Shown here piece by piece: positions 20,920-64,000 of a DNA stretch of 64,000 nt. The stretch's first letter is position 1; each line of letters begins with the position of its first letter. Source of the stretch: Promethearchaeota archaeon (GTDB taxonomy: Archaea; Asgardarchaeota; Lokiarchaeia; Sigyniarchaeales; SOKP01); contig JAFGGO010000085.1 of assembly GCA_016930515.1 (NCBI GenBank), positions 244 through 64,243 of the forward strand. The letters are read 5' to 3'. Made by a program: the position numbers and the translations under genes. Below the pieces are notes generated by a model, which saw only the letters and a list, made by a program, of their open reading frames with translations, was not told where the DNA came from and did not search any database.

Positions 20920-21202
20920 GACAAATCGCTCGATTTAAATGAGTTCAATAAACGCGAGTTAATTGTAAGGAAGAACTCGCAAGATGGTTCACCAGAGAAA
21001 TTAAATTTGCCAAGAGCAAAAAAGTTTTCTAAGGAAAATATCAAATACTATGTAGAGATAACAAAAAGTTTAAATAATTATTGGTATTATATACACTACT
21101 AACCATCCAACTCTCAAGTTCCATGGTTAAGTTTTCCCAATTGAGTCGGAAGGTTATTTTATTAATTTTAAATCACATAGGATCAATTATGGTCATTCAA
21201 AA

Positions 21203-43143: not shown

Positions 43144-43259
43144 CCTAAATCTCGTATTATTTTTAGTATTGCATTAACGACTTAATTATTATTGATTTTG
43201 TTTTATATAAATAAAAAAGTTTATCCGTAAATGAAGAAGAACAATAAAAGCATTTTTTT

Positions 43260-51638: not shown

Positions 51639-51669
51639 GTATAGATCGCCTTACAAATACAACCGTTAT

Positions 51670-51684
51670 ATTTAAAGAAAAAAA
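51670..51684 (-). promoter_or_regulatory. T-tract-C-TATA promoter element of the six-gene operon
   Basis: Minus strand TTTTTTTCTTTAAAT about 32-46 nt upstream of ATG; recurs at 60679, 63844, 63902 and 56891. Confidence 0.55.
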
Positions 51685-51801
51685 GGAAAAAATGGAAAAA
51701 TGAAGTAAGGTGTTGAAATTTAGATAAAATTATACTCTTTTGAACTTAAGATAATACTATAAACAAAATCATCGATAGAAAAATTAATTAATCTGTAATA
51801 T

Positions 51802-53790
51802 TTAACGATTGAATTCTATATTATAATTTTCTGTCTCCATATATACTTTCACACCTGCGTCTTTTAAGGTGTCGAGAATTTTAAAAGATTCAATGTCACC
51901 TTGTTCGATAAAGGGGTTGTTTATCAACCACACTTCTTCGAGTGAATTTAAGGAAGAAAACGAATTGGGAAGCGATATCAAAAGGTTGTTATGCAGGTAC
52001 AATTTTCGAAGAGATGAAAGGTTGCCAATCGATTCGGGTAGCGTTTCTAGGGCGTTATTTTGGAGGGAAAGGATTTCAAGAGATGAGAGGTTTCCAATGG
52101 TTTCTGGTAGCTTTTTTAACCTGTTCCACGAGAGATTTAACTCTTCAAGGCTTGCAAGATTCCCAATTGAGTCAGGAAGTTCACTCAAGCGGTTATCGTA
52201 AATTAGTAACTTTTTAAGTGAATTGAGTTTACCTATAGTTTCGGGTAAAGAAGTCAAGATATTTCTTTCCAGAGAAAGCCCTTGGAGCATTACAAGGTTT
52301 CCGATTGATGTTGGAAGCGTGGAGAGTTGATTGTCATGAATCCATATTTCTCTCACTAGTTCAAGATTTCCCATGGATTCAGGGAGTTTATGTAATTGAT
52401 TTGATTGGAGGAAAAGGAACCTGAGTGATGCGAGGTTTCCAATTGATTCAGGAAGTTCCCTTAATTTATTAGTGAATAACCACAGTTGTTGGAGTGAAGT
52501 GAGATTCCCAATAGTTTCTGGAAGATATTCTATTTCATTTTTTTGCAGGTATAATATTTTAAGGGATAAAAGATATCCAATTGATTCTGGAAGCTCCTTG
52601 AGCATGTTCGCTTCTAAATCTAAAGTGAGTAGGTTATGGATGTTTCCAATAGATTTTGGAACTCTCAATAACCGATTATTTGAGGCTAAAATAACTTGTA
52701 ATGAAGTAAGATTAGAGATCGTCTCGGGAAATGATTCAAGTAAATTATTTGATATATAGATTTTTTCTAAGCAAGAAAGATCACCAAGAGACTCTGGAAG
52801 TTCCTTTAATAAATTATTTTGCAGATAAATCCTTTTAAGAGAGCTTGATTTGCCAATATTTTCTGGGAGCGAAGAAATCCTGTTAAATTGAGCCTCCAAC
52901 GCTTGAAGCGAATAGAGTTTCTCAATATTGTTAGGCAAAGATTCGAGTTTATTATTACCTATTGACAAAGATTTTAACGAAGACAAGTTGCCAAGAGATT
53001 CTGGAAGGTAAATTAAATTATTTTCGCTAAGATCCAAGATTCGCAATTTTTCAAGGTTACCGAGAGAATCAGGAACTTCAATCAACTTATTACGCCTTAT
53101 ATTTAATTCTCTGAGCGTTTTAAGGTTGCCCATCCATTCAGGAAGCGTTTTTAATCGATTGTGTGTCAACCATAACTTTTTGATGGTAAGGTGATTTTTT
53201 AATCCCTTAAGAAGATTGAGATCGGTAATGTACTTTTGTCGAAGGTCTAAAATGTTCTTGACCGTGGGGATTGATTTGAAGTAATGTTGAATGGATTTTG
53301 ATACAACTTCGATTTCCTCCTCATTGAAATAGCTTAGATAAGCTTGCTCTAAAAGGTATTTAACAACCGAGGGATAACCACTCGATATTCGCTTGGCGAT
53401 TTCATCTTTAAAGATCTTTTTAGCTAGGGGATCCCCAACTTCTGACAGTTTTTTAAGCAAGGGAAAAGAAAGATTGCTGTGAAGCAAACGCGTGTCGTAA
53501 TTATTTTCATTCCAGGTTTGAAGGTTTGAACAATGTCCCCAGAATTCTTGAATTGGTGTAATATCGTGAATTCCCCCCTCGTATATTCGATTATTATGTA
53601 AGGTTTTGAAAATTTCAGATGCTTGATCGATGGTATCTATTTGGTCGTATTCGGATGCTTGATCCTTAAAAATTTTCAGGACAAGTCTCATGCATTGTAA
53701 GAACTTTTCTCCGTTAATGTATATGAAAGTTTTATCGTCTTCAAGTCTTAGCTTTATGTAGGCATTGACCGTAAATTCCATGGAATCCAT
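51802..53790 (-). CDS. Leucine-rich repeat protein with a Lokiarchaeia-type N-terminal domain
   Basis: FTVNAYIKLRLE..FWGHCSNLQTW..YDTRLLHSNLSFPLLKKL..GDPLAK, then about 19 23-aa LRRs. Confidence 0.93.
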   Translation of the reverse strand: MDSMEFTVNAYIKLRLEDDKTFIYINGEKFLQCMRLVLKIFKDQASEYDQIDTIDQASEIFKTLHNNRIYEGGIHDITPIQEFWGHCSNLQTWNENNYDTRLLHSNLSFPLLKKLSEVGDPLAKKIFKDEIAKRISSGYPSVVKYLLEQAYLSYFNEEEIEVVSKSIQHYFKSIPTVKNILDLRQKYITDLNLLKGLKNHLTIKKLWLTHNRLKTLPEWMGNLKTLRELNIRRNKLIEVPDSLGNLEKLRILDLSENNLIYLPESLGNLSSLKSLSIGNNKLESLPNNIEKLYSLQALEAQFNRISSLPENIGKSSSLKRIYLQNNLLKELPESLGDLSCLEKIYISNNLLESFPETISNLTSLQVILASNNRLLRVPKSIGNIHNLLTLDLEANMLKELPESIGYLLSLKILYLQKNEIEYLPETIGNLTSLQQLWLFTNKLRELPESIGNLASLRFLFLQSNQLHKLPESMGNLELVREIWIHDNQLSTLPTSIGNLVMLQGLSLERNILTSLPETIGKLNSLKKLLIYDNRLSELPDSIGNLASLEELNLSWNRLKKLPETIGNLSSLEILSLQNNALETLPESIGNLSSLRKLYLHNNLLISLPNSFSSLNSLEEVWLINNPFIEQGDIESFKILDTLKDAGVKVYMETENYNIEFNR

Positions 53791-53986
53791 CCTTACCCAA
53801 TTTTAAAATTAATGAACTTAATAATATTTAAATAATCCCTTAAAAGAAATTGCTATCGAATTTGCGTGTTCAATTCTTTAAAAATCTAATGGCAATATTG
53901 GTTCAAAAATATTTCTTTTTTTTGTTTATATATACTGATAACACATACAAATCAATGTATTTATCAATAAAACGAGGTATTATAAA

Positions 53987-54298
53987 ATGGTAATAACAGA
54001 AAAGAATCTTAAAGATATCGTAAAGTACAAGCAAAACACGAAAAATGCTCATAAATGCCCATTTTGTAAGAAAAAGATAGAAATTGGAATTGAATATGAA
54101 ATGTTGAGCAAGTTGAAAGAAGAAAACCGCTTTCCATACCCTCACGTGGTATTACACGGTAATCCTCTTCATGCAATGGTGTGCTATATAGATAGTAATT
54201 TAACTGTAAGAAATGTGAGCGTCATCAAGAGTGTTGAAATATCTCGCGATTCAGAAACATTTGCACAATTGATGAATAAATGGGCAAATCCGTATTAA
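53987..54298 (+). CDS. Small putative metal-binding protein (CPFC, HG..H)
   Basis: SD GAGGT; 14 nt before the helicase gene. Confidence 0.75.
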   Translation: MVITEKNLKDIVKYKQNTKNAHKCPFCKKKIEIGIEYEMLSKLKEENRFPYPHVVLHGNPLHAMVCYIDSNLTVRNVSVIKSVEISRDSETFAQLMNKWANPY

Positions 54299-54312
54299 TT
54301 CGGTGAAAAGCC

Positions 54313-56832
54313 GTGGATTTAATCGATTTTGCAAGCGAGACGAAAAAATCGCAACTTTTAAAGGACAAGAAGGACGAAATTTTTGCCTATATATCTGACG
54401 AAAGAATTTTAAGGGCCCTCTTCGAATCAAAAATTTTTAGATTGAGGAATATTCAGAAGGAAACTATAGAAAAAGGTCTTTTTTTTGGGAAATCATTTTT
54501 AATATGTGCTCCGTCTGGGAGTGGAAAAACGCTAATTGGAGAGTTGTGCGCCGTGAACACGGCACTTCAATGCTTAGGCAAGGCGGTATATCTTGTTCCT
54601 TTTAAAGCTCTTGCTACTGAAAAATATGTTCACTTTAAAAAAACTTATGAAAAATATGGCTTGAAAGTGATACTTTCCATTGGAGATTACGACGCTGAAG
54701 ATTCGGAATTGGCTAGGGCAGACGTGATAGTGACAACATACGAAAAATTGGATTCCTTGGTCCGAAACTTCCATTATAAGGAATGGATTTTCGAAATTAC
54801 GAGTATTATTATCGATGAGATTCATATTATTGGCGAAGGCGATCGCGGCCCTCGTTTGGAGTCCTTGATCGTGAGACTCAACGATTTTTTAAACCACCCC
54901 CAGATCGTAGGCCTCTCCGCAACTATTGCGAATCCAGAAACGTTTAATTCTTGGCTATCTTCACTCGGAAATATATCTACTCTTATTTATTCAGATCATC
55001 GACCTGTGCCTTTGCATTACAACATACTTCGCACTCAAAACAAGGAATCAACTATCAAGAAATTAACGAGCAAGACATTGGAAGAAGGAGGTCAAGTTGT
55101 GGTTTTTTTAAACACGAGAAAAAATACAAGGGAACAGGCCTTTAACTTGAAAGAAACCGTAAAACGCTTTATCATAGAAGAAGATCGCCAAAAACTCGTT
55201 AAGATAGCTAATGACTTGAAAGAAGTGAAGGGTTTTAATCAAGATTTAAAGAAGATACTCCTCAATGGTGTAGCATTCCATCACGCAGGGCTCTTACCAA
55301 AGGAACGAAAGCTCGTGGAGGATAACTATCGACAAAAGCTAATCAAGGTACTTTGCTGTACAACCACGCTTTCGGCAGGTGTAAACATACCTGCTCGAGT
55401 CGTCATTTTAAAGAACTTTAAAAAATATGTAACCTCTGGAAAAAGGATTGGTAATTTCGAGGGTTTTCACGAGAATAGTGATGGATTTACCTACTTTAAA
55501 GCGTTTACATCAAATGAGGTCTTTCAAATGCTTGGAAGAGCAGGAAGACCGGGCTTAGATAGCGTAGGAAGAGGATATATCTTAGTAAAAGATCTTGAAG
55601 AGAAAGAATGGGTGGAGGAATATTACTTTAAATCGCTTGATATTCAATCGCTTGAATTGATACCTCGATATAACGACCTGCTTTCCTCTCTGAACAATAT
55701 GAATACTCTCATGGAACAAACCTTATTGAGAGTATATGAAGAAGAAAAAGTTACTCTCGAAAGAATTGTTTCTTTTTTTGAAAAAACCTATTTTTGGTAT
55801 AATACCAAGGAAAATGATAGGATGCGTCAAATTCCAATTGAGGAACTATTGATGATTCGCGAGATCTCAGCATTGAATGTGCTTAAATTGCATTCCCATC
55901 CAAATAAAGTAGAGGAATTAAAGAAAAGAGACAATGGTGTAAAAATCACGGGTTTAACAAAATCGACGATTAATGGATATGTCAAATCGGAATTTGGCGT
56001 TTTCTCCTGCCAGTTCGACATAAATACGGGTGTTCGATGTAGTTGCGGGTTTGAGAATGGGATTTCAGATAATTTTGCAAAACAAGAATTTTCGTTTGAA
56101 TTTTGCGACCATATAACCTTGTTTCTAATGCACCTCCTCAAGCGAGATCAAGGCAATTTCTTAAAACACATTAATGATATCGTTCCTAAATCCGTCAAAA
56201 ATCAATATGTGCTCAATTACTTGTTCGACAAGGGTCTTTTACTTAAGATTGCAGGAGAAAACATATGTTGTTCAAGATTTGGTCGTTTGATCGTTTCTCT
56301 TTATTTATATCCCATGTCCGGAGTGTTAATAAGACATCGTCTTGAAAATATCGAAATAAAGACATATAAGGACCTCATCACGGAAGCTTACGGCATACTT
56401 AAAGCGGAAAAAAAGGTTCGAGACAACAAGATGCTCCTTCCTGTTGTAGAATACGCCGACGAGGTACCATTGGATCAAATCATTGAAGATCACGGAATAT
56501 TTGCCGGGGATTTATACGCGGTTAAGAATAACATGGAACGCGTCATGGTATTCATAAAAGAAATTGCCAGACATTTGAGCGAAACCGATCCTTCTCTCGT
56601 TGAGGTAACTGAAATGGCCGAAACCTTAACTATAAGATTAAAGCACGGAATTAAAGAGGAGTTATTTGACTTGGTATTGAGGCTTCCAAATGTAGGAAGG
56701 TCGAGGGCTCGAATTCTTTACGACGCTGGCTTCCACACAGTAGAACAAGTAAGAAAGCAGAACTACTACTTGCTTCACAGAAAAACGGGATTAGGCGTTC
56801 GAACTTGTAAGAAATTAGTCGCCAAGGAATAA
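54313..56832 (+). CDS. Ski2/Hel308-like DExH helicase with an inserted SWIM zinc finger and C-terminal HhH
   Basis: APSGSGKT, DEIH, LSAT, FHHAGL, TTTLSAGVN, QMLGRAGRPG; RCSC..FCDH; LPNVGRSRARILYDAG. Confidence 0.9.
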   Translation: MDLIDFASETKKSQLLKDKKDEIFAYISDERILRALFESKIFRLRNIQKETIEKGLFFGKSFLICAPSGSGKTLIGELCAVNTALQCLGKAVYLVPFKALATEKYVHFKKTYEKYGLKVILSIGDYDAEDSELARADVIVTTYEKLDSLVRNFHYKEWIFEITSIIIDEIHIIGEGDRGPRLESLIVRLNDFLNHPQIVGLSATIANPETFNSWLSSLGNISTLIYSDHRPVPLHYNILRTQNKESTIKKLTSKTLEEGGQVVVFLNTRKNTREQAFNLKETVKRFIIEEDRQKLVKIANDLKEVKGFNQDLKKILLNGVAFHHAGLLPKERKLVEDNYRQKLIKVLCCTTTLSAGVNIPARVVILKNFKKYVTSGKRIGNFEGFHENSDGFTYFKAFTSNEVFQMLGRAGRPGLDSVGRGYILVKDLEEKEWVEEYYFKSLDIQSLELIPRYNDLLSSLNNMNTLMEQTLLRVYEEEKVTLERIVSFFEKTYFWYNTKENDRMRQIPIEELLMIREISALNVLKLHSHPNKVEELKKRDNGVKITGLTKSTINGYVKSEFGVFSCQFDINTGVRCSCGFENGISDNFAKQEFSFEFCDHITLFLMHLLKRDQGNFLKHINDIVPKSVKNQYVLNYLFDKGLLLKIAGENICCSRFGRLIVSLYLYPMSGVLIRHRLENIEIKTYKDLITEAYGILKAEKKVRDNKMLLPVVEYADEVPLDQIIEDHGIFAGDLYAVKNNMERVMVFIKEIARHLSETDPSLVEVTEMAETLTIRLKHGIKEELFDLVLRLPNVGRSRARILYDAGFHTVEQVRKQNYYLLHRKTGLGVRTCKKLVAKE

Positions 56833-56957
56833 AAAATTCTTTATTCCAAACCCCTCTAGTTCTTTTGATAACCCTCACTTTGAATATAGATTTTTTTCTT
56901 TATATGTATCAATTGTAATATCATTGTAAAAAATTTATCCTAAGATAAGCGATTCTC

Positions 56958-57260
56958 GTGATTGGCAATTCAACTGAAAAAAAAAAAGATGCCAAATCGG
57001 ATAATCCAAATATGTCATTACCAGAAGGAAAGGACTTAGTAAAAGAATGCTCTGAATCAAGCATTCAAAGGATCAAAAAGAATCTTGTTAAAAAACTAAA
57101 TATTGAATTGAGCGAAAACTTATCGATAATCGCTCAAATTAACGATTTATTACTTACTTCGAATTTAATGCCAGAGGAAAAAAAGCTTGAATATTGCAAA
57201 GGTCAGCGCCATTTTATGAAGCAATATTTAAAGTATATTTCGCTAAAATATGGATTATGA
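56958..57260 (+). CDS. Hypothetical protein
   Basis: 100-aa ORF preceded by the TTTTTTTCTTTATAT element. Confidence 0.55.
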   Translation: MIGNSTEKKKDAKSDNPNMSLPEGKDLVKECSESSIQRIKKNLVKKLNIELSENLSIIAQINDLLLTSNLMPEEKKLEYCKGQRHFMKQYLKYISLKYGL

Positions 57261-57318
57261 AATCGAAATTGGATATTGTTTGTGCTAAAAATCCCTCAAT
57301 GTTATTTTTTTTGTTCCT

Positions 57319-57834
57319 TTATTTCTGGATATAAAATAAATCTTCTTGCGTCTTTTTCAAAAAACCTTCTCGAAAACAGATATCTATAAATCTTTTAACT
57401 TTTTCTTTTGAAATTCCGTGATCTTCGGCAAGCATGTAAATGACATGTTCCGGAAATCGTTTAAATCTTTGATCGAGTTTTCTTAAAACCATTTTGAAAA
57501 AATCGTATTTAGTAAGTTCTTTGTTGCTATAAATATTATCAAAATTACTCGAATTAGAAATACTATAATCTCCATCTGCTGAAAAATCTGGAAGTCTACC
57601 TGTTTCTTTTAAGGACAAGCTATTTTGCAGTTCAATTAATCTTTTTCTTGCGGCAGTTGCTCCCTTTATTACTTCTGAAGTCGATTCTAATTGAGTAACT
57701 ATGTGAAAATGCCCGCATCTCAAGCATTTTTTACGTTTTTGAGTCGTCTTCACAAGCGAATAATTATTACACTTGAAACAACAAAATACGAAATAGGGAG
57801 TTACGTCTTTTTTCCATCCCCTTTCTTTCATCAA
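57319..57834 (-). CDS. DUF1922-like zinc-ribbon protein with a C-terminal winged-helix-like domain
   Basis: YFVFCCFKC..KKCLRCGH; overlaps the helicase stop (ATGA). Confidence 0.8.
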   Translation of the reverse strand: MMKERGWKKDVTPYFVFCCFKCNNYSLVKTTQKRKKCLRCGHFHIVTQLESTSEVIKGATAARKRLIELQNSLSLKETGRLPDFSADGDYSISNSSNFDNIYSNKELTKYDFFKMVLRKLDQRFKRFPEHVIYMLAEDHGISKEKVKRFIDICFREGFLKKTQEDLFYIQK

Positions 57835-60083
57835 TCCTTCTCCTCATCGTTAATCTTTTGTTCGTGCACATTTCTCAAGATAAAAAACAGTTCTTCGTGA
57901 TCGTCAACGCATATGATTCTTAAATCACTCTTTTCTGAAAATTCTATAGCGGCTCTCTTGAGTGATCTTTTGTGCCCCTCATATTTTTCCTTAAATTCAG
58001 AAAAATCAAGAATATTTAATACTAACTCGTATTTTTCGTTGGAAACTTCGTTGAATTTTTCGACATCAAATAGTTCAATATCCTCGGCTGGATAGATCTG
58101 AACAAGTACGTTTTTGCCAATAACCACATGTTCCTGAGATTCAACAAAAATATGTGTCATGTTCCATTCACCCAATTTTTTCCTCAAACCCCATCTCATG
58201 GGGAGGTTCTTGCTTATTGTAAAATCAGCTTGTAACATTATAGGATTCTTATTGATGGCTTTGATTGTGAAATCTTCTAAGCTAAATTGTTTTGATCCTT
58301 TTAATCCCTTAATGTTATTCTTGGAGATATCAGTATTGGTCCCAATATCTAAGTATTTATGAATTTTAGCCCGCACATTACCCTGCCCCTCTGATATGTT
58401 TGATTCCCCAGAAATATTGACTAAAGAACTCGCATTAAAATCAATTTGGTTCTGGCTACTAGTACCAATGGATTCGTTAAGTATTCGATTCGAGTTCTTG
58501 AGATTGTAATTCATCTTCTTAAGTCTATTGAGTGCAATGTTCAGATAAATTTCGTCTTTAGAATTCTTTGTATATAGTATGAGGACTCTACCCTTTCGAT
58601 GACGAGCCGTGCGTCCTTTCCTTTGTATCAACCGAATTTCTGAGGCGACTACATCGTAGAATATAACGAGATCGCATTCAACAATATCCAATCCCTCTTC
58701 TGCCACATTTGTAGCTACTAGAATGTTATATTTTCCTCGTTTGAAATCATCAAGGATCTGAATTTGTGTTTTCTGGGATAAACCCGTGTCTTTTTTTGAT
58801 TTAGTAGCTTGACCGACGAATCTTGCGGCTTTAATAGATTGTATCTTGTTTAATTTTTCTACAATATTTAATACTGAATTTCGGAGCTTAACGAATACTA
58901 AAATTTTTAATTCAGGGCTTGATTGAAGCTCCTTTCTCAAATAATTTTCAAGCACGTGATATTTAGGATGTATTAACTTTTCTGGTGTGAAATCCTCACA
59001 TTTTTGAAGATCAATGAAAATTCTTCTTATCTGCTGGTTAGAAGCCAGGATTTTTACTGCCTTGGAACTATTTTTTTTCCGAGCGTCACTCCGTAACTTT
59101 TCAAGGTATTCTAATAACACATCAAGCCCCTGTTGCTCGACAAGTTCTATCATGTGATATAAAATCAACGCTTGAGCGTTAACGGATATTGCTCCATAAG
59201 AGCCCGTCTTTTCACCTTCACCCCTGAGTATATCAATTAAGTCAGAGTTAAGCTTTACAAGGTCCTTCCTTAAGACTTTCTTTGTTAATGGGCTGGATTC
59301 CTTCGATATAAATCCATTTTGGGCGAGATAAATCAACCTTTCTTCTAGGATCTGTTCTATTGCCTCAACGGAATCTTCCATCAACTGAGTTCTTTCTACT
59401 CCGATCTTGAATATATCCATTGGTTTGAGATACGACTTCACATCATTATCTTTTCTCGAACGGATGTGAATGTTTTCCACGGGCACATGCAAGCTCTCGC
59501 ATAAAGTTAAAATCTTCTCTTTCGTGGATCCAGGAGATGCAGTTAAGGCTAAAATAAATCCGTCTGAATTCTGCTCAAGAAATTTATCCGCAATCAAGAT
59601 GTACGGATAATCTCCAGAGGCGTGGTGTGCCTCGTCTATTACTAACAAGCAAACTTTCTTTAAAGCGTATCTATTGCTAACCAGATCGTTTCTTAGGGTT
59701 TGGGGGGTGTAAAACAACACCTGTCGGTTCTTAAATATTTCTAACCTTTTTTCAGGAGGAATTTTTCCCGTGAGGATTCCAAACCTATCTTCGGGAACTT
59801 GAAGCTTATATGAGAAAGATTCGTAATGCTGATTGATTAACGGCCGAGTAGGGGCCAATATTATAATTTTACTTCCCGCAGGCACCATTGTTAATGTTTT
59901 TAACGCTACTAACACGGCAATAACGGTTTTTCCAAGTCCTGTGGGCAACACTACTAAAGAATTTTTACCCGCACACTTGTCTGCGATTTCAACTTGGTAT
60001 TTTCTATATTCTATTAATTGATTTTTAGTGTTTTTTTTTTCGAGAGTTTTTTCTTCTTGAATATCGTTTTTAATATCACTCAT
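57831..60083 (-). CDS. hef: Hef/FANCM(Mph1)-family helicase with a degenerate C-terminal domain
   Basis: YRKYQ, LPTGLGKT, APTRPLINQH, DEAHH, LTASPGS, RFVGQ, ATNVAEEGLDI, IQRKGRTAR. Confidence 0.9.
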   Translation of the reverse strand: MSDIKNDIQEEKTLEKKNTKNQLIEYRKYQVEIADKCAGKNSLVVLPTGLGKTVIAVLVALKTLTMVPAGSKIIILAPTRPLINQHYESFSYKLQVPEDRFGILTGKIPPEKRLEIFKNRQVLFYTPQTLRNDLVSNRYALKKVCLLVIDEAHHASGDYPYILIADKFLEQNSDGFILALTASPGSTKEKILTLCESLHVPVENIHIRSRKDNDVKSYLKPMDIFKIGVERTQLMEDSVEAIEQILEERLIYLAQNGFISKESSPLTKKVLRKDLVKLNSDLIDILRGEGEKTGSYGAISVNAQALILYHMIELVEQQGLDVLLEYLEKLRSDARKKNSSKAVKILASNQQIRRIFIDLQKCEDFTPEKLIHPKYHVLENYLRKELQSSPELKILVFVKLRNSVLNIVEKLNKIQSIKAARFVGQATKSKKDTGLSQKTQIQILDDFKRGKYNILVATNVAEEGLDIVECDLVIFYDVVASEIRLIQRKGRTARHRKGRVLILYTKNSKDEIYLNIALNRLKKMNYNLKNSNRILNESIGTSSQNQIDFNASSLVNISGESNISEGQGNVRAKIHKYLDIGTNTDISKNNIKGLKGSKQFSLEDFTIKAINKNPIMLQADFTISKNLPMRWGLRKKLGEWNMTHIFVESQEHVVIGKNVLVQIYPAEDIELFDVEKFNEVSNEKYELVLNILDFSEFKEKYEGHKRSLKRAAIEFSEKSDLRIICVDDHEELFFILRNVHEQKINDEEKD

Positions 60084-60658
60084 TATTGCTCAACTTTTAC
60101 CTCATAGCGATCGACTTTTAAGTTAAACACGGGTTTGTTAAGTCTTTTATAAGAGAGAATGATGCGACCTAGTTCTAATCCAAGCCTTGAGGGATATATA
60201 AGATCGTTTCCGTTCTTGTAAAAAAAATATGGATGATGGTTCTTTACTGCTTGGACCATGGCTGATAATTTTGATGAGGTATCTTTAAGGTCAAAACCTT
60301 TTCCTCGTTTAATCTCTAAAAAAGCATAAGTCAAATCTCCCAGCTTTTCAGCGTGATCTTTTTCAAGCGTGATGATATCCGGAATTTTATCTAGAAAACT
60401 TTCGGTCCTCAAATATATAATACCGTTTTCCACGCTCTTTTCTAAAATATGGTTTTTAAAAGTCGAACGCATTGTTTTTTGCGTTTCTAAGATCAAATCA
60501 ATTGCTAAATGCGTTTCTTGAGGATTTAAACCGAAGTACCTTGCAAGTTCCGTGAAATTAAATTTTTTTTCGTATTTTCCCTCAAAAGAGTTCAAAATTT
60601 TTACGATATCTTTAATCTTTTCAATAAGCGAGTAATTTAGATCTGATCTCATTGTCAC
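60083..60658 (-). CDS. Hypothetical protein with probable winged-helix domains
   Basis: FNFTELARYFGL HTH-like segment; stop overlaps the hef start. Confidence 0.7.
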   Translation of the reverse strand: MTMRSDLNYSLIEKIKDIVKILNSFEGKYEKKFNFTELARYFGLNPQETHLAIDLILETQKTMRSTFKNHILEKSVENGIIYLRTESFLDKIPDIITLEKDHAEKLGDLTYAFLEIKRGKGFDLKDTSSKLSAMVQAVKNHHPYFFYKNGNDLIYPSRLGLELGRIILSYKRLNKPVFNLKVDRYEVKVEQ

Positions 60659-60678
60659 ATTCGTTATTGCTTGAAATT

Positions 60679-60693
60679 ATTTAAAGAAAAAAA
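60679..60693 (-). promoter_or_regulatory. T-tract-C-TATA promoter element of the hef operon
   Basis: TTTTTTTCTTTAAAT on the minus strand, identical 15-mer to 51670-51684. Confidence 0.55.
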
Positions 60694-60824
60694 CTTATTG
60701 AATGGTCATCTATAGAAAAATTTCAGAAGATTTTTGAATAGAAAAAAATATCACTTATAAAGTGGGGTTCAAATAACTGCATTAATCTATTTATAAAATA
60801 CAAAATAAAGATACAAAAAAAAAA

Positions 60825-63800
60825 TTAGGTTTTAATCTTGGATTTAAAGGATTTTTTGAATTTATGAGGAAATCTTTTTCGTAAATCTCCCTTAACCTTA
60901 AGAAATATGCCTCCAATGACGAAAGGAGCGATAAGAAAACCCAGTGAAAGCGTTGAGGCTAAGACCACTTGTTTTTTCTCTTCTTCCTGTCCCTTCAATG
61001 CTCCCGATGGTTCAGAATACAATGAAGAAGTCCATGTATGGACTAATTCCGGATGGTCTAAAAATGGGTCCTCATAGAACATTTCATAGTAATAATCTCC
61101 GTATTCAGTTGGAATATATTTCAGGAAATAATTTGTCTGATTAGCATTCTCTGTTTTAGTCTCGTTTAAGTAAATGCGTTCGATAAAATCGTCGTTTAAA
61201 TACACATCCACAAAAAATCGGTATCCATAAGGCCCCGATGCCAAGCTTCCGTTCTCAACAATTATTTTTGACGATGCTCTAAATTCCACACTTCCGTCGG
61301 ATATCGTCAGGGCGTTGAAGGACTCAATCGACTCGCAAAATGTTGTAAAGGAGATCGGAAAGCTCAAGATAACCGTCCCACCTTCGTAAACTTCGATCTT
61401 GCCCTCCACGCTCGGATAATTATCGATTGTGATTGGAACGACGATTTGTTGCCAGAAATAATTTTCACTTGCACTTAATGAAAACGATCCTAATTGCTCG
61501 CTTTCGAAGATAGCCGTATAGTCCGTGGCTATTACATCGTAAATTAATTCACTTAATGACACGCTCACATTAACGGTATTACCCAAGGCTATGGTGGCTT
61601 CGCACGACACTTCTCCGCGTATCCATTCTGAATTAGCCATTTCACAAATCCAGAAGAGTGCTTCTTGTTCGATTTCCATTTTTTCCGTGGACAAGTAAAA
61701 ATCATTGATGTCTTCGAAATATATTTGTTGGACTAAATCCTGAATTAAAGAAGTGTCAAAATCGTAATCTTTACCAAGGAGATCAAATATCTTGAAGCAA
61801 TAATAGACACTAGCAATGCTCGAATAATCAAGGCTTTGAATGGCGAAAGATAATATCTTTTGGTCGTCCAAGGTGTATGTCTCCAATATTTTTAACAATT
61901 CCAATGCAAAATAAGTATTTTTTAACACCTCGATCTTATCATCCGTGTAGCGAGGTTGGAAATACGCAATTCCCCCTTCTTCAACAATGTTTCTATATAA
62001 GAACTCCGTGAGCGAATCACAATCGATACCCGAGTCGCTTAAAGAACCCAGATTCAGGTAATTATAAATTAAGATTAACGACTTGATTCCGTAATAGGTG
62101 TATTCGAGAAAAACATTCTCGTCTCTCACATCTGCGGGGGCCCATATTAAGCCTCCGTTAGGAAGAAATCCCCCGTTTCCATCATATCCTGGCTCTAAGA
62201 ATTGACAATCAACGATCGATTGAAGGAACCCTAGCAAAGAATACAAATTGTCTAAGTCATCCAACTTGAATGTGTTTTTCAGGATCTCCAAGGCGAAATA
62301 TGTGGCTTTATGTGAATAAGGCATACCTATTGCTTGAAAAATTTTTCTATTACCATAACTATTTGTTTCGGTAGGAAATGTTTTGAAATACATGCAATCG
62401 AGAGCTATATTCACTTGAGAACCGAACATCGACTCTGGGAAGTAATTTAACATACAAGCGTTGGTGATTTGGTTGAAAATAGCCTCTTTTTCTAATAAAG
62501 CAAGATTGTTGTACTTGTTCTCCATTTTAAGGCTTTTAACAATGGAATTGAGAGATTTTATGGAGGTGTAATCTTTCGAAACAATAGAATAGCCTCCTAT
62601 TGGGTTCTTGTAAAGATTGAACGAGTTAGCAATTTCATCTAGCTCTAAAGTTGGAATCATTGATAGAGATCCCGTGTTATACAAAGATCTTAAGATCGCG
62701 TAAGTGAACCAAATGTCGTGGTTGTTTCTGGTGGTTCCGTCGTCCCAATTACCGCGCTCGTTCCTATGAGATATCACATATTGAATAGTCGCTGTCCTGT
62801 CGTAGCTAGAAAACCAAGTCAAATCTGATAATTCCACGGCCATTGCGCTCGCAACCAAGTTCATTTCCTCTTCTAATCCAATGAACTCTCTCATGGCGAA
62901 AAAATGCTCACTCGTCTGATAAGTACTATCCATATATTCCCAAAAATCGCTTAATCCCATGCTTGCCACGCTTCCAAATATTTCTAAGACTTTAACGCAA
63001 TAATAAGAAGAAATCGTGCTTTTATCGCTTGGACAAGTTGTATAAATCGATGAAAATTTATCGTTTTTAAAACAACCGTTACTCCCGTGAAGAGAATTTA
63101 TGAATAAGATGATATCGTCCACTTCATCCCCATAGGTTAACCAATCGCTTAAGAGAAGATCCAAGGTCATGACTGCGTGGAATGTATTTTCTGCCGTTGG
63201 AATTAGAAATTCGCTGGCTAACGAAGGATCGTAAGGCCTGCCCATGAATCCGTGTTCCAGGGGATTGTAACAGCTCCAAATGAAATTAATAGTGTCTTGC
63301 GTGTCGATTAGAGATAAATTTCCCAATAAGTAAAGGATTATCGTTGCGTAACAATTAACTTCCAGAAGAGACGTAAGTGGGTAGTAGATGCTGAGAAAAT
63401 CGGTGTCTAAATATCGATCGGAATAAATGTCGCTAAAGAGGTGAGTAGTTGCATTGTAATGCGCCATGATAAAGTTCACGACATTGTCCTTGTCGATTGC
63501 TATTTCTTTACCCAAATACATCAAACTCTGAACGGCGTAGTAAGTGGCGTGGATGGATGGATGGTAATATTCCGAAAAATATCCGTCCTGACGGAATTCT
63601 TCAATCTTGGCGTCAAGTACTTGTTCCATTATTTGCTGGGTACTAAGACTATGTTTGATATAATGCAGATCTTGGTTTGGGTCGCTTTTATAAGCGTTAA
63701 TCGGGGACATGTTCCAAAACGAAGCAATAATGCCCGTTATAACCAGCACTAAACCAGTTAATTTTAATTTTCGTGTTATATTTACATTCCTTGTTCTCAT
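60825..63800 (-). CDS. Large secreted, C-terminally anchored protein with prenyltransferase/squalene-oxidase (alpha/alpha barrel) repeats
   Basis: Signal/TM segment; repeated TYYAVQSL, TFHAVMTL, SYYCVKVL, TYAILRSL, TYFALEIL units with GGF motifs; C-terminal TM and Lys tail; likely ATG 63800. Confidence 0.8.
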   Translation of the reverse strand: MRTRNVNITRKLKLTGLVLVITGIIASFWNMSPINAYKSDPNQDLHYIKHSLSTQQIMEQVLDAKIEEFRQDGYFSEYYHPSIHATYYAVQSLMYLGKEIAIDKDNVVNFIMAHYNATTHLFSDIYSDRYLDTDFLSIYYPLTSLLEVNCYATIILYLLGNLSLIDTQDTINFIWSCYNPLEHGFMGRPYDPSLASEFLIPTAENTFHAVMTLDLLLSDWLTYGDEVDDIILFINSLHGSNGCFKNDKFSSIYTTCPSDKSTISSYYCVKVLEIFGSVASMGLSDFWEYMDSTYQTSEHFFAMREFIGLEEEMNLVASAMAVELSDLTWFSSYDRTATIQYVISHRNERGNWDDGTTRNNHDIWFTYAILRSLYNTGSLSMIPTLELDEIANSFNLYKNPIGGYSIVSKDYTSIKSLNSIVKSLKMENKYNNLALLEKEAIFNQITNACMLNYFPESMFGSQVNIALDCMYFKTFPTETNSYGNRKIFQAIGMPYSHKATYFALEILKNTFKLDDLDNLYSLLGFLQSIVDCQFLEPGYDGNGGFLPNGGLIWAPADVRDENVFLEYTYYGIKSLILIYNYLNLGSLSDSGIDCDSLTEFLYRNIVEEGGIAYFQPRYTDDKIEVLKNTYFALELLKILETYTLDDQKILSFAIQSLDYSSIASVYYCFKIFDLLGKDYDFDTSLIQDLVQQIYFEDINDFYLSTEKMEIEQEALFWICEMANSEWIRGEVSCEATIALGNTVNVSVSLSELIYDVIATDYTAIFESEQLGSFSLSASENYFWQQIVVPITIDNYPSVEGKIEVYEGGTVILSFPISFTTFCESIESFNALTISDGSVEFRASSKIIVENGSLASGPYGYRFFVDVYLNDDFIERIYLNETKTENANQTNYFLKYIPTEYGDYYYEMFYEDPFLDHPELVHTWTSSLYSEPSGALKGQEEEKKQVVLASTLSLGFLIAPFVIGGIFLKVKGDLRKRFPHKFKKSFKSKIKT

Positions 63801-64000
63801 TATTAACACAATTTTTAATTTAACGCTTGAATATCCTCGATCCATTTAAAGAAAAAACTTGAAACCTATTTCATTTCTTCTTGAAGAATAGAATCATATT
63901 GTTTAAAGAAAAAACGAAAATTATAATGAAAAAAAAAGGTTAAAATTTATAACAGGATTAATGTCTTCGTTTGTTTACAACAACCCCTACCAATAAGACG

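Follow-up and report, generated by a model that had tools for sequence, protein, structure and literature searches.

[quoted passage not shown] Several variations on this scheme are described, to the extent that the cited accounts cover them. At the haloarchaeal hsp5 promoter, BRE and TATA alone confer regulation, and TFBb/TFB2 bind it (PMC2396416). In Sulfolobus, the A(N)TTTC hexamer is located at -44 to -39, upstream of BRE and TATA (PMC5817253), and TFB3 of the Sulfolobales is a truncated protein without an HTH that acts as a co-activator with TFB1 (PMC6101594). TFB2 of Sulfolobus acidocaldarius is a full-length paralogue, associated with a gar1-tfb pair, that drives a cell-cycle gene wave (bioRxiv 10.64898/2026.09.06.749720), and Asgard viruses and enigmatic elements of the Loki type encode a TFB of their own, along with zinc-finger proteins and genes for replication or repair (bioRxiv 10.1101/2021.07.29.453957).

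We analysed a 64-kb window, that is, the whole stretch of Promethearchaeota DNA under study, together with its host genome and related genomes. The original prediction had placed six copies of an element, T6-8-S-TTTAWA (hereafter the T-run element), ahead of transcription units in this window. All six were found at the positions given and they are the sole copies, since direct reading and a pattern search for TTTTTTSTTTAWA gave six matches and none further (Table 1). When the window was shuffled 100 times with preservation of dinucleotides, the mean number of matches was 0.24 and none of the 100 shuffles reached six. The genome has 42 copies in 4.0 Mb; at the rate of its remainder, 0.11 copies would be expected in the 12.3 kb that hold these six (Poisson P(>=6) = 2.4e-9). 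The excess of the motif over a reversed control is just about 1.4- to 1.7-fold genome-wide, and therefore most of the isolated copies are attributed to chance.

Judged from their position and geometry, the T-run copies are promoters of the archaeal core type and not terminators, with start sites that are predicted. No RNA run that contains this DNA was found listed. All six window copies are oriented towards a gene, and 64 of the 89 matches pooled from 262.5 kb of island contigs in seven genomes are at promoter position, with 15 in ORFs and 10 elsewhere. Counting the first T of the TATA box as the reference for numbering, the composite element consists of T5-10, C (rarely G or CC), TTTAWATA, pyrimidines at +10/+11, a purine at +13 and T-A at +28/+29. 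In the logo of the 64 promoter-position copies, T occupies -7 to -2 in 84-100% and C occupies -1 in 91%; of the 64, 49 have a pyrimidine at +10, 50 have one at +11 and 61 have a purine at +13. The TTTAWATA box is located about 22-24 nt before the predicted start, the T-A at +28/+29 is initiator-like (A at +29 in 29 of 35 leadered copies), and start codons follow the TATA hexamer at two preferred distances, 23-27 and 44-58 nt.

The spacing of TTTAWATA and the directional flanking elements resemble the canonical core promoter, whereas the BRE position differs. As had been predicted, the pyrimidine tract takes the place of the BRE: T-run and C sit exactly at this position, at about -36 to -30 relative to the predicted start, and abut the TATA box, and no purine- or A-rich BRE directly upstream of TATA was found at the T-run copies. 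On the host average this position is enriched in A and purines; at non-island sites with leaderless geometry (n = 143), A accounts for 40-48% at -7 to -3 and T5-S was seen in 1 of the 143. An A-rich BRE had also been ascribed to the other promoters of the window, and the example AAAAAGTTTAAATA near 21063 is present, but the A-richness is a modest average tendency with no sharp motif.

Table 1. T-run promoters and genes of the window, with the positions matched by the TTTTTTSTTTAWA pattern. Positions given for the T-run copies include the full T run.
Feature	Position	Strand	Pattern match	Remarks
Weaker copy TTTTTTATTTATATA (T6-A-TTTATATA) before MFS gene	43204..43218	-		Outside the conserved island
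Putative operon: HhH protein of 679 aa, then proteins of 245, 298, 1316, 112 and 159 aa	43260..51638	-		Mostly without known family (Pfam); gene gaps 0-13 nt or overlapping
T7-C-TTTAAA(TA), promoter of HhH-protein operon	51671..51684	-	51671-51683	TATA hexamer 51676..51671; predicted start ~51647-51646 (geometry from the 64-copy logo); ATG 51638; orthologous T-run promoters before HhH-protein homologues in G015, G006, G018
LRR protein gene	51802..53790	-		Within island, outside regulon
T8-G-TTTATATA, promoter of 103-aa + Hel308-like operon (T8-G-TTTATA at 53916-53930)	53916..53932	+	53918-53930	Upstream neighbour divergent; predicted start ~53954; GAGGT precedes ATG 53987
103-aa protein	53987-54298	+		Cys pairs; no Pfam match
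Hel308-like helicase, 839 aa	54313-56832	+		Pfam DEAD, Helicase_C, archaeal helicase domain 4, HhH
T7-C-TTTATAT promoter ahead of 100-aa ORF (T7-C-TTTATA at 56891-56904)	56891..56906	+	56892-56904	
100-aa ORF	56958..57260	+		No family match; weak homologues in G015 and G018 islands
Operon: 191-aa protein, Hef-type helicase of 750 aa, DUF5817 protein of 171 aa	57319..60658	-		Families from Pfam
T7-C-TTTAAATA (T7-C-TTTAAA), promoter of 191-aa/Hef-like helicase/DUF5817 operon	60680..60693	-	60680-60692	In-frame GTG 60658 at +27, ATG 60652 at +33 from the first T of TATA
1006-aa protein	60825..63845	-		Prenyltransferase-like alpha-alpha toroid domain (Pfam)
T6-C-TTTAAA, P2 of 1006-aa gene	63845..63857	-	63845-63857	Its final A also opens the annotated ATG
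T6-C-TTTAAA, P1 of 1006-aa gene	63902..63914	-	63902-63914	56 nt before ATG 63845

The island of which these genes are part is, as far as gene content and synteny tell, a conserved accessory module with a second, divergent set of proteins for recombination and repair. It comprises diverged paralogues of RadA, RadB, RPA, FEN1, Hel308 and a Hef helicase, HhH proteins and many proteins without known family, extends onto further contigs and is syntenic across genera. The 839-aa helicase scores 350-412 bits against NCBIfam Hel308-type models with cut-offs of 887-1216, and is therefore regarded as a diverged paralogue. The 750-aa Hef-type protein scores 541.7 bits against NCBIfam Hef (cut-off 610), with a match confined to the helicase part (model positions 4-526 of 781), and the canonical, full-length Hef is encoded on contig C126. 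Its operon has orthologues in the islands of five relatives, and homologues of the 679-, 245-, 298- and 1316-aa proteins are present in relatives' islands as well. Because of the positions of its GTG and ATG, the transcript of the Hef-type operon is predicted to be leaderless or nearly so. At the 1006-aa gene, the spacing of P1 is kept, with the T-run 50-56 nt upstream of the orthologues in three relatives (G015, G018, G007), and P2 is followed after 44 nt by the second Met (residue 16, 63800), so that a shorter form may arise.

In accordance with the prediction that the element marks a discrete gene set, it precedes conserved transcription units, namely 9 of 21 in the island, whereas of the 2962 other units of the genome 18 have it (Fisher p = 2.5e-14, with counts that rest on rough in-house gene calls). 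The island of one relative (G018) has it in 13 of 18. Six more copies are found on contig C116, before a RadA paralogue, a FEN1-like gene and their neighbours, and the off-island matches on C164 and C58 precede genes with homologues inside relatives' islands. The original prediction proposed conservation in orthologous promoters as a check, and the T-run does recur there across genera, also where gene order differs. All eight assessable island RadA loci of family f1 have it upstream of the gene (two with one extra T), and in eight orthologous upstream regions of the Hel308 operon it is the sole conserved block, present in 7 of 8 assessable relatives together with one near-match. A general regulon of radA, rpa and repair genes, also suggested, was not borne out: the element stands only before the diverged paralogues of the island, was found in 0 of 17 upstream regions of canonical RadA, and none of the genome-wide promoter-position matches precedes a placed canonical Hef, FEN1 or RadA gene. 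Likewise, none of six orthologues of an off-island control gene on C47 has a T-run. Within the island, the LRR gene has an ordinary TTTAAATA and no T-run in its upstream region and no counterpart in relatives' islands. The weaker copy before the MFS gene exists as described, but it is not a member of the set, because A replaces C/G and the MFS gene has no homologue in relatives' islands.

An alternative TFB or activator had been proposed to read the element. A candidate was found in the island itself, a TFB with a rewritten HTH recognition helix, whose reading of the T-run we infer. This gene, iTFB, is located just outside the window (67068-68024(-) in window-scale coordinates), and in relatives a divergent TFB gene lies just upstream of the 1006-aa homologue (tblastn, maps). 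According to sequence comparison and a predicted structure, iTFB is a very divergent full-length TFB paralogue with zinc ribbon, linker, two cyclin repeats and HTH. Its identity to TFB/TFIIB chains of solved structure is about 16-19%, it has no match to Pfam TFIIB (PF00382) at E <= 0.01, and hhalign relates it to six canonical TFBs of the host genome at 98.7% (E 3e-16, 250 columns). In Foldseek, its AlphaFold model (pLDDT 77.5) matched 7o4i_M, a yeast TFIIB chain, with E 1.2e-6, and its core superposes on 1d3u_B, P. woesei TFBc, with a TM of 0.81 and an rmsd of 3.4. All of 15 orthologues keep the zinc-ribbon residues C20, C23, C37 and C40, and the Pfam Zn_Ribbon_TF match is weak (E 8.7e-5, 22.4 bits versus a cut-off of 29). 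The canonical recognition helix GVTEVTVRNR, in which T, T, R and R are invariant in host TFBs, aligns to GIRMSTIQSQ of iTFB, whose I, M, S and T do not vary among the 15 orthologues. Thus iTFB lacks the BRE-reading helix V-T-E-V-T-x-R-x-R, keeping one Thr of the residues invariant in the canonical TFBs and none else.

The gene of iTFB is on one contig with island genes in seven relatives. Within f1 its distribution is patchy, with 90 of 126 genomes positive and several copies in some; in 24 genomes from six other families it was not found. Over the reversed control, the 91 f1 genomes with iTFB have a mean motif excess of 11.1 sites and the 36 without it one of 3.5, and three genomes of 97-99% completeness (G009, G010, G058) have neither a detected iTFB nor a dense T-run cluster. 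Four iTFB-negative genomes have a motif excess of 15-20 sites, and T-run clusters or island genes occur without a detected iTFB in G105 (94% complete, 510 contigs), G004 (90%) and G003 (83%). The T-run was never found before the iTFB gene, whose own promoter is a canonical BRE-TATA, ACCGTAA..TTTAAAAG plus a C-rich block, kept in 12 of 14 copies. The two iTFB copies of the host genome are both a short form of 318 aa; the C-terminal extension of about 100 aa that most orthologues have is absent from them, and no separate copy of it was found.

The reading that we favour, with a probability of roughly 0.58, is that the island T-run promoters are core promoters read by iTFB with TBP. iTFB would join TBP at the island TATA boxes and read both flanks, its rewritten HTH contacting the upstream T-run/C and its first cyclin repeat reading the downstream bases. 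An element that flanks TATA on both sides fits this proposal, because the HTH and first repeat of TFB contact both flanks in the account of PMC4581349. The iTFB gene itself would be transcribed from its canonical promoter with the conserved C-rich block, and since iTFB is on such a promoter and the island on T-run promoters, we propose that production of iTFB would turn on the whole island together. Bacterial alternative sigma factors are encoded beside their regulons and use private promoters, while the factor gene is under a housekeeping-type promoter. The likeness lies in a dedicated initiation factor with a private promoter and in the cascade, and the difference in the TBP/TFB machinery; homology of TFB and sigma is no more than argued in PMC4581349.

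Several observations count against reading by iTFB. The host genome encodes nine canonical TFB paralogues and three TBPs, any of which could serve the island promoters. The T-run is low in information and an unusual target for major-groove reading by an HTH. In addition, the co-occurrence of iTFB and T-run is imperfect, p-values are overstated because related genomes are not independent, the host iTFB is short, and just 9-11 of about 21-23 island units of the host have a T-run.

An unlikely alternative to iTFB reading is that T-run/C is the site of a dedicated activator or repressor other than a TFB, perhaps a zinc-ribbon protein of the island, with a canonical TFB initiating and iTFB having its role elsewhere. 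The island does retain DUF5817 and other small proteins with Cys pairs or zinc ribbons, namely the one of 103 aa encoded ahead of Hel308 and one of 105 aa that weakly matches a topoisomerase zinc ribbon. The T-run clusters of the three fragmented genomes without detected iTFB are compatible with this reading, and archaeal regulation is, according to PMC6101594, mostly by such factors at or beside BRE and TATA. However, the element is fused to TATA in a fixed register, as the C at -1 illustrates, and has a second conserved feature downstream of TATA, which is the footprint expected of TBP and TFB and not of a separate operator. It is also neither palindromic nor repeated, and among the island proteins iTFB alone combines an altered DNA-reading helix with conservation of that helix.

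It is rather improbable that the T-run is a factor-independent structure, a rigid dA:dT tract that excludes histones or aids bending by TBP and thereby gives strong constitutive promoters for the housekeeping TFB. TTTTTTC is indeed the top single 7-mer before forward TTTAWATA upstream of genes genome-wide (5/444), and a few isolated copies precede unrelated genes, for example an RpoK-like gene on C126. Nevertheless, a generic strength element would not be expected to be confined to the island, to be absent from canonical RadA promoters or to be lost at the orthologues of an off-island copy, and the near-invariant C at -1 and purine at +13 would be left unexplained.

That the T-runs are poly-T terminators of upstream co-oriented genes, abutting the next TATA by chance, is hardly credible, for although the upstream gene is co-oriented in 36 of the 64 promoter-position copies and in five of the six window copies, the upstream neighbour is divergent in 27 of the 64 across the seven genomes, several copies form back-to-back pairs with T-runs facing each other (e.g. 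C116 28363(-)/28407(+), G006 12725(-)/12749(+)), the register to TATA is fixed and the run is kept despite differing gene order. The caveat that several window copies might be terminators is set aside by these divergent copies, and the 53916 copy, exempted from it at the outset, is no terminator because its upstream neighbour is divergent. At the 36 co-oriented copies, where the run could also stop the upstream transcript, the element could have a dual role as promoter and terminator.

Compared with the described paralogue systems, within what the cited accounts cover, the island shares with hsp5/TFB2 a paralogue-specific core promoter logic. There, a single stress promoter and ordinary TFB paralogues are involved (PMC2396416), whereas the island, from sequence alone, has a distinct promoter class of about 10-18 units and an outlier factor that the island itself encodes. 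The suggested resemblance to A(N)TTTC of Sulfolobus is limited to a TFB paralogue linked to a DNA damage and exchange regulon and a T-rich non-palindromic motif; it fails in position and factor, as the T-run replaces the BRE instead of lying upstream of it (PMC5817253) and iTFB is full length with an HTH, unlike TFB3 (PMC6101594). TFB2 of S. acidocaldarius shows that archaeal TFB paralogues can own regulons, but its promoters are similar in BRE and TATA and differ only in spacing (bioRxiv 10.64898/2026.09.06.749720), whereas in the island the BRE sequence itself differs and the regulon is clustered. Asgard mobile elements resemble the island in having their own TFB with such genes (bioRxiv 10.1101/2021.07.29.453957), and the patchy, in some genomes multi-copy, iTFB recalls them. 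No iTFB relative was found in a viral contig collection, 28 island proteins gave PHROGs matches limited to helicases and recombinases, no integrase was seen in the island parts scanned, and the island is syntenic.

So far it is poorly resolved whether additional TFB copies genuinely select promoters by means of a DNA element of their own, and the known cases involve a slightly altered distance between BRE and TATA or a co-activator that has no DNA-binding domain. In the island, a sharp conserved element at the BRE position, about 10-18 target units per genome and one outlier TFB with a rewritten reading helix encoded alongside were obtained, and the question therefore becomes testable with two proteins and short DNA probes. 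Asgard archaea are the lineage closest to eukaryotes, and archaeal and eukaryotic transcription both use TBP and TFB/TFIIB. In the literature searched, no publication was found that describes the T-run/iTFB island system. We see the odds as about even that it is an orthogonal initiation system of one Loki-type family, in which a private TFB/BRE pair would insulate an accessory recombination module, possibly a domesticated mobile element; T-run/C would act as an 'anti-BRE' that housekeeping TFBs read poorly or not at all, and the module would fire only when iTFB is made. The island also draws attention to a conserved second set of recombination proteins, and the orthogonal system, if true, would be the first clear-cut archaeal alternative BRE with a dedicated, sigma-like general factor.

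The original prediction had placed six copies of the T-run element, T6-8-C/G-TTTAWA fused to the TATA box, in the window, and direct reading together with a pattern search (TTTTTTSTTTAWA) located all six, every one within 51671-63914 and pointing toward a gene. Dinucleotide-preserving shuffles of the window (n = 100) gave 0.24 matches on average and six in none, and at the density seen in the rest of the genome this 12.3-kb stretch should contain 0.11 copies (P = 2.4e-9). The window lies on contig C137 of an assembly of 4.0 Mb and 35% GC; one of its proteins has closest homologues labelled Promethearchaeota or Lokiarchaeota. Across the assembly 42 copies were found, 18 inside ORFs, 14 in promoter position and 10 elsewhere; the genes were rough ORF-based calls, 3534 in number, with the first start codon taken. 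When a T was demanded after the hexamer, 23 copies remained genome-wide, 12 of them in promoter position, and of the 69 matches of the control pattern T6-S-TTTAW[CGT] just 3 were so placed. In the genome-wide motif scan, a check proposed with the original prediction, the element stood at 9 of the 21 transcription units of the accessory recombination and repair gene island versus 18 of 2962 elsewhere in this genome (Fisher p = 2.5e-14). Two of the "off-island" promoter matches (contigs C164 and C58) precede genes with homologues in the islands of relatives. Two candidates were dropped as members of the element. The weaker copy at 43204 is present as had been claimed, but lies outside the island ahead of an MFS gene without homologue in relatives' islands, and the off-island strict copy on contig C47 was carried by 0/6 orthologues.

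The island is not confined to this contig. Contig C116 has six further copies within 9 kb. They stand before a RadA paralogue, before a FEN1-like gene, where CC follows the T-run, before an RPA-like operon, with T5-CC, and before genes for small membrane or zinc-ribbon proteins. Relatives have the genes for the Hel308-like protein, the RadA paralogue and the divergent TFB together on one contig (G006:C26, G007:C13, G012:C35), so C116 and C137 are parts of one island. The MFS and acyltransferase genes to the left of 43260 had no homologues in relatives' islands, and the left edge is therefore placed near this position. An LRR gene inside the island has an ordinary promoter, and its counterpart was looked for in relatives' islands and not found; it is probably a recent insertion. 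The share of island transcription units with the element was 13/18 in G018, 10/28 in G006, 8/26 in G007, 8/23 in G015, 4/15 in G005 and, with flanks included, 7/49 in G012.

Sequence scores mark the proteins of the island as second copies that have diverged. Against the NCBIfam cut-offs, the Hel308-like protein scored 350-412 bits (cut-offs 887-1216), the helicase part of Hef 542 (610), the FEN1-like protein 267 (352) and the island RadA 325 (259); RadB-like and RPA-like proteins are also encoded. Canonical FEN1 and Hef are on contig C126, and two RadA genes with higher scores on C161 and C83. A comparison of the island proteins with PHROGs gave helicase and recombinase matches only. The island RadA paralogue has an HhH at the N-terminus and an extra C-terminal HhH at residues 353-400. 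The gene for the 1006-aa protein has tandem T-run promoters 57 nt apart (63845-63914), of which the one nearer the gene overlaps the annotated ATG and has the right spacing for the second Met, at residue 16, where a predicted membrane anchor starts; two protein forms are possible.

Coordinates of the T-run copies, genes and loci
Feature	Window coordinates	Other coordinates	Strand	Gene faced or description
T-run	51671-84			679-aa HhH protein and five more closely packed genes
T-run	53916-30			103-aa protein and Hel308-like helicase
T-run	56891-904			100-aa ORF
T-run	60680-93			191-aa protein, Hef-type helicase and DUF5817 protein
T-runs	63902-14 and 63845-57			1006-aa protein with prenyltransferase-like toroid
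LRR gene	51802-53790			662 aa
iTFB gene	67068-68024	C137 67311-68267	-	318 aa, just past window end
iTFB promoter locus L074	about 68025-68260	C137 68268-68500		
Second iTFB copy		C58 39515-40465		318 aa
Island RadA paralogue		C116 30002-31237 (L022 6003-7238)		411 aa
iTFB copies of relative G072		C9 370-410 kb, C9 530-570 kb, C6 665-705 kb		

For the promoter geometry, the island pieces of this genome were pooled with the island contigs of six relatives (262.5 kb) and searched with a relaxed pattern, T5+ [CG]1-2 T3-4 AWA. Among the 89 matches, 64 were in promoter position (intergenic and facing a co-oriented gene no more than 200 nt away), 15 within ORFs and 10 in other intergenic places, and some of the last precede small ORFs that the rough gene calling did not pick up. 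Counting from the first T of TATA, the 64 copies had T at +6 in 80% and A at +7 in 88%, positions that lie outside the search pattern, which extends the box to TTTAWATA. Pyrimidines were found at +10 in 49 and at +11 in 50 copies, and a purine at +13 in 61; further downstream, position +28 had T and position +29 had A, the latter in 29 of the 35 copies with a start codon 40-90 nt downstream. Start codons followed the TATA hexamer at distances that clustered at 23-27 nt, as in leaderless genes, and at 44-58 nt. An archaeal promoter with TATA centred near -26 relative to the predicted start has this layout, which would put the T-run at about -36 to -31 and the C at -30, at the position of the BRE. 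Starts are predicted at +29/+30 from the first T of TATA, for instance near window positions 51647, 53954, 56928, 60656, 63821 and 63878. By this arrangement the window copies and the pooled copies are predicted to be promoters. The original prediction had cautioned that copies lying downstream of a co-oriented gene could be terminators; this reading is excluded in its pure form, because the upstream neighbour is divergent at 27 of the 64 copies, and several are back-to-back pairs with T-runs facing each other. A repeat or mobile element as source of the motif is ruled out, conservation being absent beyond -7 to +13.

Conservation in orthologous promoters, suggested earlier as a check, was found before both the Hel308 operon and the island RadA gene. 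For the Hel308 operon, the T-run was upstream in 7/8 assessable relatives, together with one near-match (TTTTTATC), a count that left out two incomplete loci and a masked one, and when eight upstream regions were aligned no other block was conserved. In the masked locus (L009 ~895-930, G016:C287) the N run falls exactly at the expected T-run place, directly before TGTTTAAATA. For the island RadA, the T-run was 70-100 nt upstream in 8/8 assessable loci of the host family, f1 (two with one extra T; one incomplete locus was left out), and was absent from both assessable loci of other families. The expected enrichment before radA, rpa and repair genes thus holds for the island RadA, FEN1-like and RPA-like genes and not for the canonical RadA paralogues, where the T-run was absent from 17/17 upstream regions, at least four of these being probably still coding since the first ATG of the frame was used. 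Six of these 17 regions (L055, L058, L068, L069, L070, L073) have a different conserved promoter in common, roughly CTCTATTTC.TTTAAAATA, whose TATTTC immediately before TATA recalls the Sulfolobus A(N)TTTC hexamer, although its position differs. We consider the T-run promoter class and its confinement to the island well supported, with a probability of roughly 0.9.

As routes to the ordinary promoter of this genome, TTTAWA hexamers were uninformative at 35% GC, as were tRNA upstream regions (only 12 tRNAs were found, by a search that did not include introns), and anchoring on the octamer and leaderless geometry gave modest success. Compared with the reverse orientation, forward TTTAWATA upstream of genes (n = 444) was preceded by enriched A at -7, -5, -3 and -1 and by depleted T, and a separate octamer set (n = 33) agreed with this A tendency. 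At the non-island sites with leaderless geometry (n = 143), A accounted for 40-48% at -7 to -3 and C for 12% at -1, and T5-S was directly upstream of TATA in one. The A-rich BRE that had been ascribed to ordinary promoters is present in the example near 21063 and persists as an average A excess, but not as a sharp motif.

The candidate reader of the T-run is iTFB, a very divergent full-length TFB paralogue encoded in the island. Its family matches were weak only (Zn_Ribbon_TF, cyclin and NCBIfam TFIIB, the last at 27 bits), a direct PDB sequence search yielded E values of only about 0.4-0.9, and the BLASTP matches to a canonical TFB were all short and weak. Since direct searches barely detect TFB, profile and fold comparison were required. 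The AlphaFold model, built on an alignment of 15 orthologues (pLDDT 77.5), had TFIIB/TFB as top fold matches (7o4i_M, E 1.2e-6; 1d3u_B, TM 0.81, rmsd 3.4, 210 columns), and the iTFB profile matched six canonical TFBs of this genome (98.7%, E 3e-16). All four zinc-ribbon cysteines are invariant in the 15 orthologues. In the canonical C-terminal HTH helix, GVTEVTVRNR, the residues T, T, R and R are invariant in the six TFBs; in the aligned iTFB helix, GIRMSTIQSQ, the 15 orthologues have I, M, S and T without exception and Q with few. These altered yet invariant residues indicate that the reading helix of iTFB is rewritten but constrained. Canonical TFB paralogues, with two PF00382 repeats apiece, number nine in this genome and TBPs three; none is in the island, and the set is large for an archaeon. 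Its two iTFB copies are 51% identical, and both are without the C-terminal extension of ~100 aa (ending in KGPP) of most orthologues (405-445 aa), for which no separate gene was found in this genome by tblastn; another assembly has a 317-aa form (74% identity). Database entries of the family (363 proteins, E <= 1e-10) are named hypothetical or TFIIB/Brf1.

The original prediction had likened the T-run to the ANTTTC element of Sulfolobus. This likeness fails, because the A(N)TTTC hexamer is described at -44 to -39, upstream of a normal BRE (PMC5817253), and TFB3 as having no HTH (PMC6101594), whereas the T-run is at the BRE position itself and iTFB has an HTH. More similar cases are the haloarchaeal hsp5 core promoter, reported to be bound by particular TFB paralogues (PMC2396416), and the Sulfolobus TFB2 promoters, reported to differ in BRE-TATA spacing only (bioRxiv 10.64898/2026.09.06.749720). 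A full-text literature search found no description of the T-run promoter class or of the iTFB family. TFBs encoded by Asgard viruses and mobile elements have been reported (bioRxiv 10.1101/2021.07.29.453957), and the patchy distribution of iTFB and its multiple copies in some genomes make a mobile-element origin possible; the viral contig collection, in which no iTFB relative was found, counts against it. Some family members (G060, G072, G122, G149) carry 3-5 copies of iTFB. Those of G072 comprise one in a full but rearranged island, a second whose locus also has RadA and the 103-aa gene, and a third alone, an arrangement that may reflect a duplicated or mobile module.

The distribution of iTFB was compared with that of the T-run. 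iTFB was found in 90/126 f1 genomes and in 0/24 genomes drawn from six further families in the class, and in seven relatives it is on the same contig as island genes. Among f1 genomes, TTTTTTSTTTAWAT exceeded its reversed control by an average of 11.1 with iTFB (n = 91) versus 3.5 without (n = 36), and in genomes at least 90% complete by 11.9 (n = 68) versus 5.2 (n = 19; p = 0.006, which is overstated since related genomes are not independent). In G009, G010 and G058, which are 97-99% complete, neither iTFB nor a dense T-run cluster was found. Several observations count against the link: in G105 (94% complete, 510 contigs) two clear clusters were seen and iTFB was not detected, G004 and G003 have island genes with iTFB not found, four iTFB-negative genomes have an excess of 15-20 sites, and both iTFB copies of the present genome are the short form. 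A TFB is described to contact the upstream BRE by the HTH of repeat 2 and the downstream BRE by repeat 1 (PMC4581349), and such contacts on both TATA flanks match an element conserved on both sides of TATA. Taken together, iTFB as the reader of the T-run is the best explanation, and we infer that the balance tips modestly in its favor.

The T-run itself was never found upstream of the iTFB gene. Instead, 12 of the 14 iTFB upstream regions (loci L074 and L075-L093) have ACCGTAA..TTTAAAAG, a C-rich block (ACTCCyMCCC) and then ATATAG.TCTTAG, and in this genome the C-rich block occurs before the two iTFB genes and nowhere else. The upstream block looks like an operator or leader element that would control iTFB. 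An iTFB gene without the T-run but with a conserved promoter of its own fits a cascade.
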